64,000 nucleotides of DNA from Gammaproteobacteria bacterium (GTDB taxonomy: Bacteria > Pseudomonadota > Gammaproteobacteria > Eutrophobiales > Eutrophobiaceae), in NCBI GenBank assembly GCA_965243115.1, contig CBDEUD010000003.1, forward strand, positions 1,748,007 to 1,812,006, written 5' to 3'. The notes below the pieces were generated by a model, which saw only the letters and a program-made list of their open reading frames with translations, ran no database searches and was not told the DNA's origin. Made by a program: the position numbers and the translations under genes. This document shows positions 58,330 to 62,175 of the stretch, piece after piece. How positions within the stretch are numbered: position 1 is the first letter of the stretch; every line of letters starts with the position of its first letter.

Positions 58330-61300
58330 TTACTTGTCGTCTTCGTCTTTCCCGGGTTTGAGTGATGGATCAAACAGTTTTTTCGTATGGAGATATTCGT
58401 CAGGGCTCTTGACCCGTAAACTGTGTTCAGGATCGTGTTTTGTAGGTGCCGTATTGTGCAACCTGGGGTGAGGCAGCCTGTACAGCAGGGGTCCTTCCCC
58501 GCGTTTTTCAATGTCCGGGACGATAAATTGCTCCAGCCATGCATTGAATAAAGCTACCCGTTCGGCCATATCGGGGTAGTCCGGGTAACGCAGGTAGCCC
58601 ATTTCCTGTAACATTTCCCACGTCAGCATCATTTGTTTCATTGTCTGGAAGGTAGGAATTTCAAGATCAGGCTGCCCGGTTACCTTCATGTAGCTTTCCA
58701 GTGCCCGGGCGTACGCCAGGCAGTTTCTCGCCTGGTTGGTGGAATTTTCCAGGTCCCAATACGGTCCCGTCTCTTCGATGTTTTCCTTCGAGTACAGGGA
58801 CTCGGCGATCCGTTCCCGCATTTCGTCAAAATTATCAATGGGATAAATGAACATCGCGTGACGTCCCTTCAGGACCTTGTCGGGGAAACGCATCTCTTCA
58901 ATGAATGCGCGCGATATGTATCCGAACATGTTCCCTTTGGTATAGGTGGATTCATCGTACCGGCCGACAGGGATACGGTAGGGGGTGTATTTTCTCTCGC
59001 CGGTAACGGGGTCCTCGTCGAAATCTTTCCGGATGAGATGGACCCAGACTCCCTTGTCCGGGCGGTCGGTTTTGTACAGGCCGAAAGACGAATGTGCAAC
59101 TACAAAATCAAGCTCATCGCGGATCCTCGGACTCGAAACGTACGCCGTGTAAGCAAAATCCGTGTGTCCTTCAGGACCGGGCAAGGGGCCTGGAATGTCC
59201 TTGAACGGCTCGAGCAGTGAAGTTCGGTACGCGTTGGGATGGCGTTCCTGGGCAGGCGTCAGGGCAGGCATGCCGGCAAAATAATCCGGATTGACCTTGT
59301 ATGCCTTTTTGGTGCCAATCCATTCCCGGAACTCCCTGGTGATATCGGCCGTTGCACCGCCGAACTGTTCATTATATAAACGCGGGTCGGGTAAGAAGCC
59401 GACCGGCTCATCACCCGTTCTCTTGTAGAGCCAGTCGTTGAAAATTTGTTCAACACCCATGTTGAAGATATGAATCCGGTTTACGGAACTTTCATCGTCA
59501 TAGAAACGGCCGTAGCCCAGTTTGAAGGCGTTCAGGAACGCATCCATGTATTCCCGCAGCGAATTCGACTTGCGCGCACCGGCGAATATCCCGGTCAGTT
59601 GCGGGTCCATGAACTCCGTCAGTCTTGCCTGCTCCCCGGCATAGTTAAAACAATTGACCGGGTAATCGGATTCGGGCGCATGAATTTTCCACCACGGATA
59701 ATCCTCGGCGCCATCTTCAGCCTTTTTCGGCGTCATTGACCTGATGAGCCTGTCCCGCATCTCGTGGAAAGTCTCTTCCGTGACGGGCATGACGACCGCG
59801 GCGACACCCTTGGTAAAATTGTAATCGACATCCCGCACCTGGATGCGGTACGCCTTACCCATGAGGTTTCCCTCAATGAGCGTCGACCCGGCGGGGGCGT
59901 CCGTTTCTGTCCTTGTATTAATCATTATTTCCATCGATGCGCCTTGTTCCTGCCGCCGGGCATCGACTACGGAGATGTCGGCATGCACTCCCATGGTCCC
60001 CTGCACAAATGTTATATCCTGGGCAAATCTCAGCACGGCAAAATACCTGTGACCCGCGTCTCCGGGAAGCGGGCGAACCAGGTTTTTAATGGGATCGAAC
60101 CCCGCGGAGGTGAACTCAATGTTCCCGTAGGCATAAACGGGGGACTTGCCGAACTTGTTTTCCCGGACTTTAAACGTCCTGATCACTTGCGGATAAGATG
60201 AAGCAACGGTATCACCGGGCGCCTGGCCGCCTGCGTGCAATGAGGTCCAGTGATCGAAGGCCCCGCCGCTCTCATACCCCGGCATGACGGGAGTGGTATG
60301 GCTGTCATGCCGGCGCGTGCGATCCCCGTACCATTGATACGGACTGCGCCAGTTTTGCCTTTGCAGCCACTCGCTTCCGGGCCGGACCACCCCTTCAACC
60401 GCGCCGCCGACAGAACCATCCACTAGCGAACAGGCGAGCACTTCGCTGAACCTGTTATGCTGGTCATCGGGATAATGTTTCATGACTTCACCCAGGATTT
60501 TTCCGTCCAGCGCGCCCAGTCCCACACAGCCGATGGACATGAACGCGCCACCGAGTGAATTGGCAAAAACGCTGCCCCGGGGAGGCGCGGTACCCAGGTT
60601 TTCCCTGTCTGCCGCATTCCGGGTCCTGATAAACAGGGAGTTGCTGCCGACATCGCCTACGTTTGCCTGTTTCAGGGCAACCTCCATCAATGGACCGGTG
60701 ATCATTTTCAGCGACGTCCAGAGAGGATGTTGAATGTATGGGAGCGGGATGGATTTTTTAACGCCTTCGGCTATTTCCCTGATTTCGCTGGAAGGTACGT
60801 CAAGGGCCCACAGGGATGAATATAATCCCACCGCGCCAAGCCCTTGTCCGGCTGCCATGACCATATTCGGCAAACGGCCGTGCTGCGGGTTGGGTGCGTA
60901 GGAGAATTTCGTATACTCTTCAACCATCGGCATAATGCGCGGGACCAACAGTCCGCTGGCTCCCAGCGCCACGGCGCCCGCAAAAAATCTTGACAGCGCC
61001 GGACTCAGACCCAGGCCCCAGGGCCCGCATACGGCAAACGTTATTTGCCCCAGGGCATATCGCGATATTGCAGTCCCGAGAATATAGGCGGCTATCCTGA
61101 TGGGAGCCGGAGCGAGGCTGCGCCCGTCTGCGATGCAGGCCATGACCTCTTCAAACTCTATCTCATGGCTGTCCTGTGCGCTGGGCATAACCAGGGGGTA
61201 AGAGCTGTCATCCCGTTGTCTCAGCGTACGGGCGCGGTCAGCCCAGTAATCTATTTCATGGCTGTCCTGCGCACTCGGCATAACCATGGGATTCATACCC

Positions 61301-62175
61301 CGTTGTACCGGCGCGGCGTGCCGGCCGGACCAGGCATGGTGTCCCATCCGGCCGAGACGCCTCAATACGCGTCCCCCGGCCATCTGCAAGGGTGAAGCGG
61401 CAACGTTCGCGCAAGGAGCAGCTGCAGATGCAGGTATCCGATCCAGCAGGGAGGCTGCAGATTCGCCCCTGGTTACGGCGCCGGCTACGCGATCGGCGTG
61501 CCGTTCGTAGCTGTCGCCGGTCTGTCCCACCCCTCCCTGTAACCGGGCAGCGCCGGGATTTTGCACGTAGTGGGCCGCCTCATGGGCTGCATCTTCCAGG
61601 GTGGGTGCATTGCCGAATGCCACCCGGCCGCCCTTGTGGTAGGCATCTGAACCAAATTCGGAATTGGCGGACCTGGCTGCGGTTCCCGTATAAGCCGTCA
61701 GGCCGTCGATTTTGTGCTTCGGGCCGAATGCCTGCTGGATTTGTTCCTTAAAAGGGTAGTCTTGAGGCGCATCGCTGAAGCCTTGCATGGCCAGGGCATG
61801 AATGCCTTGGTATTGCTGTTGTACAAAAGCCAGGGTGGCCCGGTTTCCGAAGTTTGCCTGTGCATTATCGACAGCATGCTTGAACATCAAGGGAGGACAT
61901 CCGTTGTTGATGCCGTTACTGATGTCATCCAGGGAAGTGAAGACATTCCCTCGATCCGGCTGGTTCGGGGCTGATGCAGGGAGGGCGCCGGGAGCTGCAG
62001 CGGGCGCGGGGACGGGGTTATGTTCTGTTGCAATTTTTCCTTGTTCGAGGGATGCGTTACCCTGCTGGTGTTCGTATGGTATGTGAGACATGAGCAATGT
62101 TTTACACTCAGAGCCTGTTACAGGTTCCGGGCAAGTGGGGATGGTTTGGGGTTGGCAGGAGACGCAACTCGCCAA
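58330..62175 (-). CDS. large DUF4157-domain toxin-like protein (up to 1281 aa)
   Basis: Leader FGNRATLAFV. DUF4157 (IQQAFGPKHKIDGLTAYTG...AAHEAAHYVQ). Internal duplicated VMPSAQDSHEI segment. Hydrophobic TM-like middle. About 600-aa C-terminal region of unknown function. The N-terminus may start at the downstream Met (62091). Confidence 0.7.
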   Translation of the reverse strand: MASCVSCQPQTIPTCPEPVTGSECKTLLMSHIPYEHQQGNASLEQGKIATEHNPVPAPAAAPGALPASAPNQPDRGNVFTSLDDISNGINNGCPPLMFKHAVDNAQANFGNRATLAFVQQQYQGIHALAMQGFSDAPQDYPFKEQIQQAFGPKHKIDGLTAYTGTAARSANSEFGSDAYHKGGRVAFGNAPTLEDAAHEAAHYVQNPGAARLQGGVGQTGDSYERHADRVAGAVTRGESAASLLDRIPASAAAPCANVAASPLQMAGGRVLRRLGRMGHHAWSGRHAAPVQRGMNPMVMPSAQDSHEIDYWADRARTLRQRDDSSYPLVMPSAQDSHEIEFEEVMACIADGRSLAPAPIRIAAYILGTAISRYALGQITFAVCGPWGLGLSPALSRFFAGAVALGASGLLVPRIMPMVEEYTKFSYAPNPQHGRLPNMVMAAGQGLGAVGLYSSLWALDVPSSEIREIAEGVKKSIPLPYIQHPLWTSLKMITGPLMEVALKQANVGDVGSNSLFIRTRNAADRENLGTAPPRGSVFANSLGGAFMSIGCVGLGALDGKILGEVMKHYPDDQHNRFSEVLACSLVDGSVGGAVEGVVRPGSEWLQRQNWRSPYQWYGDRTRRHDSHTTPVMPGYESGGAFDHWTSLHAGGQAPGDTVASSYPQVIRTFKVRENKFGKSPVYAYGNIEFTSAGFDPIKNLVRPLPGDAGHRYFAVLRFAQDITFVQGTMGVHADISVVDARRQEQGASMEIMINTRTETDAPAGSTLIEGNLMGKAYRIQVRDVDYNFTKGVAAVVMPVTEETFHEMRDRLIRSMTPKKAEDGAEDYPWWKIHAPESDYPVNCFNYAGEQARLTEFMDPQLTGIFAGARKSNSLREYMDAFLNAFKLGYGRFYDDESSVNRIHIFNMGVEQIFNDWLYKRTGDEPVGFLPDPRLYNEQFGGATADITREFREWIGTKKAYKVNPDYFAGMPALTPAQERHPNAYRTSLLEPFKDIPGPLPGPEGHTDFAYTAYVSSPRIRDELDFVVAHSSFGLYKTDRPDKGVWVHLIRKDFDEDPVTGERKYTPYRIPVGRYDESTYTKGNMFGYISRAFIEEMRFPDKVLKGRHAMFIYPIDNFDEMRERIAESLYSKENIEETGPYWDLENSTNQARNCLAYARALESYMKVTGQPDLEIPTFQTMKQMMLTWEMLQEMGYLRYPDYPDMAERVALFNAWLEQFIVPDIEKRGEGPLLYRLPHPRLHNTAPTKHDPEHSLRVKSPDEYLHTKKLFDPSLKPGKDEDDK

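Follow-up and report, generated by a model that had tools for sequence, protein, structure and literature searches.

Introduction

What does the long C-terminus of a large DUF4157 protein do when its gene lies close to the operon of an extracellular contractile injection system (eCIS)? This question is raised by a 64,000-nucleotide (nt) stretch of a gammaproteobacterial genome (Eutrophobiales; GenBank assembly GCA_965243115.1, contig CBDEUD010000003.1, positions 1,748,007 to 1,812,006), hereafter called the window, in which an open reading frame (ORF) at 58330-62175 on the minus strand encodes 1281 amino acids (aa) from a TTG codon. A prediction made earlier from the DNA sequence alone (the original prediction) had named this ORF the largest candidate cargo of the locus and had described its long C-terminus as a possible new toxin domain without a recognizable motif. 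The ORF is present as described and its product exceeds the other three DUF4157 proteins of the window in size. The C-terminal region proved to be a tandem duplication of a single domain that is predicted to have a permuted NlpC/P60 fold with a Cys/His active site. The best explanation overall, to which we give a probability of about 0.55, is that the protein may be an injected, membrane-directed acyl hydrolase or phospholipase delivered as eCIS cargo. Residues are numbered from the TTG codon (subtract 28 for numbering from the ATG codon discussed below); P-numbers denote related proteins and L-numbers related loci, of which L002 carries P0001.

Two tandem C-terminal domains

A single domain of ~300 aa occurs twice in tandem and makes up the C-terminal ~600 aa: copy A (aa 655-975; 59251-60213, minus strand), which is predicted to adopt a TseH-like permuted NlpC/P60 fold, and its paralogous copy B (aa 976-1281; 58333-59250, minus strand). 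The two copies aligned in hhalign with a probability of 99% (E 7e-18, 24% identity over 259 columns) and the duplication was also detected by tblastn (E 4.5e-11); a BLASTP self-comparison of the protein did not show it. The earlier description of a C-terminus without recognizable motif is replaced by this internal duplication of ~300 aa and by an invariant His, an invariant position occupied by Glu or His, and a nearly invariant Cys. The C-terminal tail of copy B (58363-58420), HTKKLFDPS followed by acidic residues, is common to all orthologues and to a stand-alone homologue of 300 aa (P0008).

By sequence comparison, the domain represents a new family with no Pfam, NCBIfam or PDB sequence match. 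The full protein gave a sub-threshold DUF4157 match only when compared with Pfam and NCBIfam, all 15 domain sequences returned nothing relevant from Pfam at E values up to 10, and neither the protein nor the family profile matched a PDB sequence better than by chance (E 0.4). Relatives are few. A protein-level search of 5.8 billion proteins detected four, a genome scan detected two further orthologues (L003 and L004) in gammaproteobacterial metagenome-assembled genomes, and a two-copy profile run against 1.84 billion representatives detected ten true relatives, with five more from a second profile search. The family has ~15-20 members in more than 5 billion proteins. An immunoglobulin-repeat protein of 2775 aa (P0014; E 1e-4 in the profile search) was discarded as a false positive. 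The expectation of a new toxin domain was borne out in that the sequence family is new, and needs revision in that there are two copies rather than one domain of 600 aa and in that the predicted structure is one of the permuted NlpC/P60 superfamily.

The distant relatives each contain a single copy of the domain, and most full-length family members are fused to DUF4157. A recognizable DUF4157 was found N-terminal to the domain in six of the 12 distinct non-orthologous members, four of which pass the Pfam cutoff; the other non-orthologous members are short, truncated or without DUF4157 (e.g., P0017, 577 aa). One relative, P0015, is encoded directly behind another eCIS operon within a row of DUF4157 genes, and the next gene encodes a second paralogue of the domain, which makes the two-domain protein of the window the fused counterpart of these two adjacent genes. 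In locus L005, two adjacent, separate DUF4157 genes (9974-11482 and 11711-13267) encode single-copy paralogues of the domain and lie behind an eCIS operon.

Predicted fold and putative active site

An AlphaFold2 model of aa 683-965 built from 15 sequences had a predicted local distance difference test score (pLDDT) of 83.1 and a predicted template modelling (TM) score of 0.85, and consists of five long strands followed by helices; a model built from seven sequences was unusable (pLDDT 48). A Foldseek search of the PDB with the model returned one credible match, TseH (6v98; E 0.011, probability 0.98, 177 columns, TM scores of 0.29 and 0.43), with the runner-up at a probability of 0.03. Against BFVD, Foldseek matched uncharacterized phage proteins only (probability up to 0.91). 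Remote homology and structure prediction had been suggested in the original prediction as the way to examine the C-terminus; the structural route led to TseH, and no sequence profile of a known family matched.

The putative catalytic triad of copy A is His731 (59983-59985), Glu749 (59929-59931) and Cys842 (59650-59652), and that of copy B, intact in this protein, is His1028 (59092-59094), His1046 (59038-59040) and Cys1152 (58720-58722), all on the minus strand. In an alignment of 15 sequences that included both copies and distant homologues, the position of His731 was conserved in 15 of 15, Glu or His occurred at position 749 in 15 of 15, and the position of Cys842 was conserved in 14 of 15, the exception being a Ser in copy B of P0002. 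P0002 and P0003 have lost this Cys from copy B. In the model, a strand (model residues 48-56) starts with His731, residue 749 lies in the adjacent strand (64-77) and a helix (160-169) begins with Cys842. The spacing of the triad in copy A is 18 and 93 residues, so that His731 and Cys842 are 111 residues apart; the His-Cys distance in copy B is 124. The corresponding spacing of the Glu81-His64-Cys172 triad of TseH is 17 and 91, a His-Cys distance of 108 (PMC11160734), and H43 and C151 of Tox-Act1 are also 108 residues apart (PMC12994826); a His ~90-110 residues ahead of the Cys was taken as the sign of the permutation. Further invariant residues are P797, W829, Y888 and R900, and R890 and N905 are each conserved in 14 of 15 sequences; these six residues probably line the substrate site. 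The model is consistent with a papain-like arrangement in permuted order, and we consider a permuted papain-like Cys/His enzyme the likely identity of the domain.

Five clades of permuted NlpC/P60 proteins have been distinguished: YiiX, LRAT, TseH (DUF6695), Tox-Act1 and DUF4105/Lnb (PMC12994826). The domain described here resembles TseH (VCA0285, a type VI secretion system (T6SS) effector of Vibrio cholerae; PDB 6V98) in that a His is followed after 17-18 residues by an acidic residue or His and after 91-93 more by a Cys at the N-terminus of a helix, features that are predicted in our case, and in being the cargo of a contractile injection machine, a property read here from the genes. It differs from TseH in its low identity (12%), in the lack of a DUF6695 profile match, in its greater length (by ~100 aa, with a conserved helical C-terminal lobe in which Y888 and R900 are invariant and R890 is found in 14 of 15 sequences), in its tandem arrangement and fusion to DUF4157, in its association with an eCIS rather than a T6SS, and in the lack of an immunity gene. 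Two other permuted NlpC/P60 proteins, Tox-Act1 (a phospholipase of the Salmonella SPI-6 T6SS) and Lnb (DUF4105; a lipoprotein N-acyltransferase of Bacteroides), are lipid-directed and have His-Cys distances of ~100-108 (PMC12994826, PMC11160734). Neither is detectably similar to the protein in sequence, and both lack DUF4157 and a tandem of catalytic domains; a membrane immunity protein accompanies Tox-Act1, and Lnb is a housekeeping enzyme. LRAT and PLAAT (HRASLS) proteins share the permuted papain-like fold, the order His, His or polar residue, Cys, an 'NC' motif and a hydrophobic membrane tether. They differ in their size (~130 aa) and in the position of their anchor, which is C-terminal, whereas the hydrophobic cassette described below is N-terminal to the domain; Pfam LRAT does not match the domain. 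The domain is predicted to work like a permuted NlpC/P60 enzyme and is most fittingly described as a new family of this superfamily with a link to eCIS.

A papain-like enzyme could also act on host proteins, as an isopeptidase, protease or deamidase (PPPDE/DeSI-like) or as a cysteine protease like Legionella SidG, directed at a eukaryotic pathway. The His-then-Cys order, the 'NC' at the start of the helix and the 'GVHxxIS' strand resemble what we take to be PPPDE motifs, a resemblance that is no more than a lead. Legionella Dot/Icm effectors with toxicity to yeast contain TseH-like domains (PMC11696984), and the companion genes of the locus have a eukaryotic flavour. Neither Peptidase_C97 nor any other peptidase model of Pfam matched, however, and no DeSI or other peptidase structure was among the top Foldseek matches, and we regard action on host proteins as quite improbable.

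Gene start, cargo architecture and regulon

The orthologues P0002, P0003, P0004 and P0006 begin with MSH(I/V)PY, which is equivalent to an ATG at 62091 in the window. The coding sequence is therefore probably 58330-62091 (minus strand) and the product 1253 aa long, rather than the 1281 aa read from the TTG codon. The 5' ends of the orthologues differ, that of L003 encoding MPYEQQ at its start. The gene is conserved in four related, uncultured gammaproteobacterial genomes, and tblastn against 72,556 plasmids found no match. Ratios of nonsynonymous to synonymous substitution (dN/dS), calculated against the L003 and L004 orthologues, were 0.12-0.60 across all segments, which indicates purifying selection: 0.13-0.18 for the hydrophobic cassette, 0.20-0.24 for copy A, 0.12-0.19 for copy B and 0.58-0.60 for the DUF4157 segment (61372-61806). 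The latter segment also had a low dS in comparison with L003 and L004 (0.13-0.15 vs. 0.22-0.42 elsewhere in the gene), and the low dS together with the raised dN/dS of ~0.6 hints at gene conversion or recombination among paralogous N-terminal modules.

The N-terminal region (aa 29-123; 61807-62091, minus strand) is rich in Pro, Ala and Gln and terminates in the FGNRATLAFVQQQY motif common to the DUF4157 proteins of the locus; counted from the ATG, similarity to these proteins starts at ~aa 48-57 and takes in a GNRxTLxFV motif. Its Pro/Ala-rich composition suggests that the region is disordered. The DUF4157/eCIS_core module follows (aa 124-268; 61372-61806, minus strand), with HEAAH at aa 198-202 (61570-61584) and the conserved SPLQMAGG at its end. 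The HExxH module of the original prediction is present in this sense and is supported by the N-terminal ~230 aa, which show 35-48% identity to the window's other three DUF4157 proteins (tblastn E 4e-25 to 6e-33). Against the Pfam gathering cutoff of 22 bits (PF13699), in turn, the full sequence scores 16.8 and its N-terminal third 20.9, both below threshold. Membership in DUF4157 is accordingly assigned from the identity to the co-encoded proteins and not from the Pfam match. A four-way alignment of the DUF4157 proteins of the window had 42 invariant columns, HEAAH included, and the DUF4157 of one of the three, fused to OtsA, passes the Pfam cutoff with 29.8 bits.

This architecture is that of known eCIS cargo. 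Cargo proteins of this kind are composed of an N-terminal domain, DUF4157 and a variable C-terminal domain, in that order, and the N-terminal domain acts in loading (bioRxiv 10.64898/2026.05.27.728243; PMC8213781); in AlgoCIS, cargo with this N-terminal part and DUF4157 is located in the tube lumen (bioRxiv 10.64898/2026.05.27.728243). By analogy to Cgo1 and Cgo2 of AlgoCIS, the N-terminal region may be a loading sequence. The protein shares with Cgo1, Cgo2 and the DUF4157-toxin fusions among the eCIS-associated toxins (Geller et al., 2021) the order of a system-specific N-terminal domain, presumably disordered here, DUF4157 (HExxH), a long linker and a variable effector domain at the C-terminus, and its size is near that of Cgo2 (1228 aa). 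It differs from them in its C-terminal domains, which are unrelated to theirs, and in an internal hydrophobic cassette that lies between repeats of a 15-aa motif.

A complete eCIS operon lies at 18163-43889, 14 kb away from the gene, which is downstream of it. The operon contains four sheath-like genes, tube proteins, a spike, baseplate J, a CIS tape measure, an AAA+ ATPase and two Pvc16-like terminators. The sheath-like paralogues (470, 461, 541 and 447 aa) are encoded within 18163-22645 and 36645-37988, and the Pvc16-like genes are at 40838-41458 and 43239-43889. The Cis12 baseplate protein of the locus is nearest to All3315 of Anabaena, followed by Alg12 of AlgoCIS. Synteny between the eCIS and the gene is kept in L002, L003 and L004; no eCIS gene was found within 10 kb of the orthologue in L001.

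The regulon box of the original prediction could be defined as CTGGTAAnTTAnnnnTTGC, which has four occurrences in the window where 0.01 would be expected. One site, CTGGTAACTTAAATATTGC at 62214-62232 (minus strand), is upstream of the gene; it is also upstream of the L001 orthologue and the block is kept in L003 and L004. Two sites, at 54444-54462 (minus strand) and 54485-54503 (plus strand), lie in the promoters from which the DUF4157-OtsA and DUF4157-OtsB genes are divergently transcribed, and the fourth, at 16057-16075 (plus strand), heads the small genes leading into the eCIS operon. In three of the four sites the box ends in TTGC(A/C)(T/C/A), which resembles a -35 element and is followed by 17-18 nt and TATAAA; no -10-like element was found at this position for the site at 54485-54503. 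At the gene itself, the 3' end of the box is the -35-like hexamer TTGCAT, with a 17-nt spacer and a TATAAA at ~62189-62194 (read by eye). This spacing suggests a -35/-10 promoter geometry that would place the centre of the box near -41. A sigma-70 scan called no promoter on the strand of the gene. Earlier candidates for the box, TTGATTATAAATTATCAA and an extracytoplasmic function (ECF)-like GTAAC-N-TCTGA, had two sites only or chance-level counts; CTGGTAAnTTAnnnnTTGC is the real element. The box was also found at 8625-8643 and 9670-9688 in L001, at 17677-17695 in L003 and at 17849-17867 in L004. In L001 it marks an unannotated gene for a protein of 259 aa (8712-9491), a possible further member of the regulon.

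The neighbouring LuxR/MalT-type regulator was correctly recognized: a MalT-type protein with tetratricopeptide repeats and a LuxR/GerE domain is encoded upstream and co-directionally (62244-64000, minus strand, frame open to the edge of the window). Its orthologues have 934 aa (L003) and 910 aa (L004).

The shared N-terminal region and DUF4157, the box common with the eCIS leader and the distant homologues that are fused to DUF4157 behind another eCIS operon together support cargo status well, and the protein is very probably eCIS cargo. The common box would also fit a protein that is not injected and acts as a membrane protein of the producer cell, co-regulated with the eCIS, for example as a lysis or release factor that degrades the envelope lipids of the cell itself. 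The hydrophobic segments and the lack of an immunity gene agree with such a role, and eCIS-associated toxins have been suggested as possible contributors to lysis (Geller et al.; PMC8213781). We consider it scarcely likely: the protein has the architecture of tube-lumen cargo in AlgoCIS and no signal peptide or N-terminal anchor, and the cassette is missing in three orthologues.

Linker repeats and hydrophobic cassette

The tandem duplication and the DNA direct repeats noted in the original prediction were confirmed and extended by a third, degenerate copy. The direct repeat (61157-61197 and 61250-61290; 41 nt, 88% identity, 93 nt apart) encodes PMVMPSAQDSHEIDY and PLVMPSAQDSHEIEF. At the protein level, copy 1 of the linker motif is MVMPSAQDSHEIDYW (aa 297-311; 61243-61287), copy 2 is PLVMPSAQDSHEIEF (aa 327-341; 61153-61197), immediately ahead of the cassette, and the degenerate copy 3 is PVMPGYESGGAFDHW (aa 629-643; 60247-60291), all on the minus strand; copy 3 is clearer in L002, where it reads IMPSDQNGSEVDYW. 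The linker duplication is kept in L002, L003, L004, P0005 and P0006. The repeats flank the cassette, and the extra copy of the motif is confined to orthologues that have the cassette.

The cassette itself (aa 342-597; 60385-61152, minus strand) is rich in Gly and Ala (24% together) and low in charged residues (15% vs. 24% in the remaining protein). It contains three to five moderately hydrophobic, GxxxG-rich segments (~358-390, 395-415, 436-458, 536-560 and 578-597). The cassette is present in the window, L002 (P0001), L003, L004, P0005 and P0006, and is judged the most constrained part of the gene from the dN/dS given above; it had no Pfam match at E values up to 10 and no homologues outside the orthologues.

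The pairing of a permuted NlpC/P60 domain with a membrane anchor is known from PLAAT. Lnb likewise pairs such a domain with transmembrane helices (PMC11160734). By analogy to these membrane-anchored enzymes, the cassette may associate with membranes, which would fit an enzyme that acts on lipids; the translocation or pore module of the original prediction is likewise a hypothetical role.

Proposed function

In the mechanism that we favour, the leader would direct the cargo into the tube by means of the AAA+ ATPase of the locus and, after injection, the Gly/Ala-rich cassette would associate with or insert into the membrane of the target cell. Cys842, His731 and Glu749 in copy A, and probably Cys1152, His1028 and His1046 in copy B, would then cleave or transfer fatty-acyl ester or amide bonds via a thioester. 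The substrates would be membrane lipids and the activity that of a phospholipase A or acyltransferase, as reported for LRAT/PLAAT, YiiX, Tox-Act1, Lnb and TseH. The permutation of the fold has been argued to create a lipid-binding pocket, and Tox-Act1 was shown to have phospholipase activity, as was TseH in a liposome assay (PMC12994826). For the two parts taken jointly, a membrane lipid as the substrate and a cassette that targets the protein to membranes, we put the chance at somewhat below even.

Several observations weigh against an injected lipid enzyme of this kind. The geometry of the triad is putative, having been read from the order, spacing and secondary-structure positions of its residues. 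At E values up to 10, hmmscan matched neither the full protein nor any of the 15 family members to NLPC_P60, LRAT, YiiX/Peptidase_C92, DUF4105 or DUF6695, and because no Pfam model of the named clades matches, the family is not filed in any of them. Comparison of the family by hhalign with an unverified PLAAT3 sequence gave a probability of 0.4%. The substrate of TseH is itself disputed, having been given as peptidoglycan (PMC12663445) or phospholipid (PMC12994826). In L004 and L001 the ATG is preceded by a leader of ~110 nt that includes a Shine-Dalgarno sequence; this leader is lacking in the window (62092-62120 compared with ~10030-10168 in L004 and ~9880-10000 in L001) and also in L003. 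In 19-aa Kyte-Doolittle windows, with ~19 aa at 1.6 or more taken as transmembrane grade, one stretch of the cassette (centred at 401-410) reached 1.63 and four others reached 1.2-1.5. The several transmembrane-like helices of the original prediction therefore exist as hydrophobic stretches, most of them moderate. Finally, the cassette is cleanly missing from the orthologues P0002, P0003 and P0004, from which it follows that the enzyme does not need it.

The same observations bear on the possibility that toxicity stems from the cassette, which with its glycine-zipper character would form a pore or ionophore, and that the twin domains are binding or regulatory pseudo-enzymes. The strong constraint on the cassette (dN/dS 0.13-0.18), its richness in GxxxG-type motifs and the loss of the copy B Cys in two orthologues would agree with a pore. 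However, the twin domains are retained in the three orthologues without the cassette, the single-domain relatives are also cassette-free, the His, Glu/His and Cys are conserved family-wide, and a single segment has transmembrane-grade hydropathy. A pore is thus very unlikely to be the toxic activity.

Companion genes and the target cell

The original prediction had proposed to look for an adjacent immunity gene. No small, co-directional ORF suited to encode an immunity protein adjoins the gene here or in the related loci examined; the gene downstream is convergent and encodes an esterase. The other three DUF4157 proteins of the window are encoded at 44031-44795, 51615-54380 (minus strand) and 54520-56067 (plus strand). 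The latter two form a divergent pair in which the same N-terminal region and DUF4157 are fused to GT20/OtsA (trehalose-6-phosphate synthase) and OtsB (trehalose phosphatase), respectively; both genes carry the regulon box and the pair is kept in L002, L003 and L004. An effector strategy in which a trehalose-6-phosphate pathway is injected into a target cell would be unusual. A 776-aa ankyrin-repeat protein without similarity to DUF4157, encoded at 9534-11864 (minus strand) upstream of the eCIS operon, is a possible further hint of a eukaryotic target. The lack of an immunity gene, the co-encoded ankyrin-repeat protein and the DUF4157-OtsA/OtsB fusions lead us to favour a eukaryotic target slightly.

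These genes also bear on a role of the same fold in attacking bacteria, as a peptidoglycan or peptide endopeptidase or amidase delivered into the periplasm of Gram-negative prey, with a cassette that would help the enzyme to reach or stay at the interface of inner membrane and periplasm. The nearest structure, TseH, has been termed a peptidoglycan-targeting NlpC/P60 endopeptidase (PMC12663445), antibacterial eCIS toxins exist and include a predicted peptidoglycan hydrolase (PMC8213781), and R890 and R900 could bind the carboxylates of stem peptides. We nevertheless regard an antibacterial hydrolase as improbable, given that no immunity gene adjoins the gene in the loci examined, that the permuted NlpC/P60 clades are lipid-directed and TseH itself is phospholipase-active (PMC12994826), and that the ankyrin-repeat protein and the OtsA/OtsB fusions hint at a eukaryotic target.

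A TonB-dependent receptor recurs beside this cargo family, at 14230-15866 and 44868-47264 in the window, 3575-5872 in L001, 3616-5973 in L002, 19154-21427 in L005 and 2794-6742 in L006. An ECF sigma/FecR pair is additionally present in the window and in L006. The receptor and the sigma/FecR pair suggest that cell-surface signalling controls the eCIS or cargo genes.

Implications

The novelty is threefold, in the domain family, in its fusion as a tandem and in a cassette that is optional, whereas the logic of DUF4157 cargo was already known. In the boldest form of the favoured interpretation, which we hold to be doubtful, the family would add to the clades of permuted NlpC/P60 proteins a sixth that is eCIS-specific and consists of lipid-modifying toxins, here a two-headed enzyme with a self-contained membrane-insertion cassette bounded by 'VMPSxQDSxEIDY' motifs; the cargo would integrate into the target membrane and remodel its lipids from within, and the repeated motifs might be sites at which the DUF4157 metalloprotease processes the protein and releases the cassette-enzyme unit.

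Few eCIS cargo proteins have an assigned activity and, to our knowledge, none described so far is a permuted NlpC/P60 enzyme. The analysis turns ~600 unassigned aa into a concrete prediction of two Cys/His active sites with named residues. The optional cassette and its flanking repeats offer a natural comparison, with and without, of how cargo may reach membranes and whether DUF4157 may process it. The regulon box ties scattered cargo genes, one of them distant from any eCIS operon, into one regulon. If the prediction is correct, it would extend the lipid-targeting NlpC/P60 toxins, recently recognized in T6SS, to eCIS.

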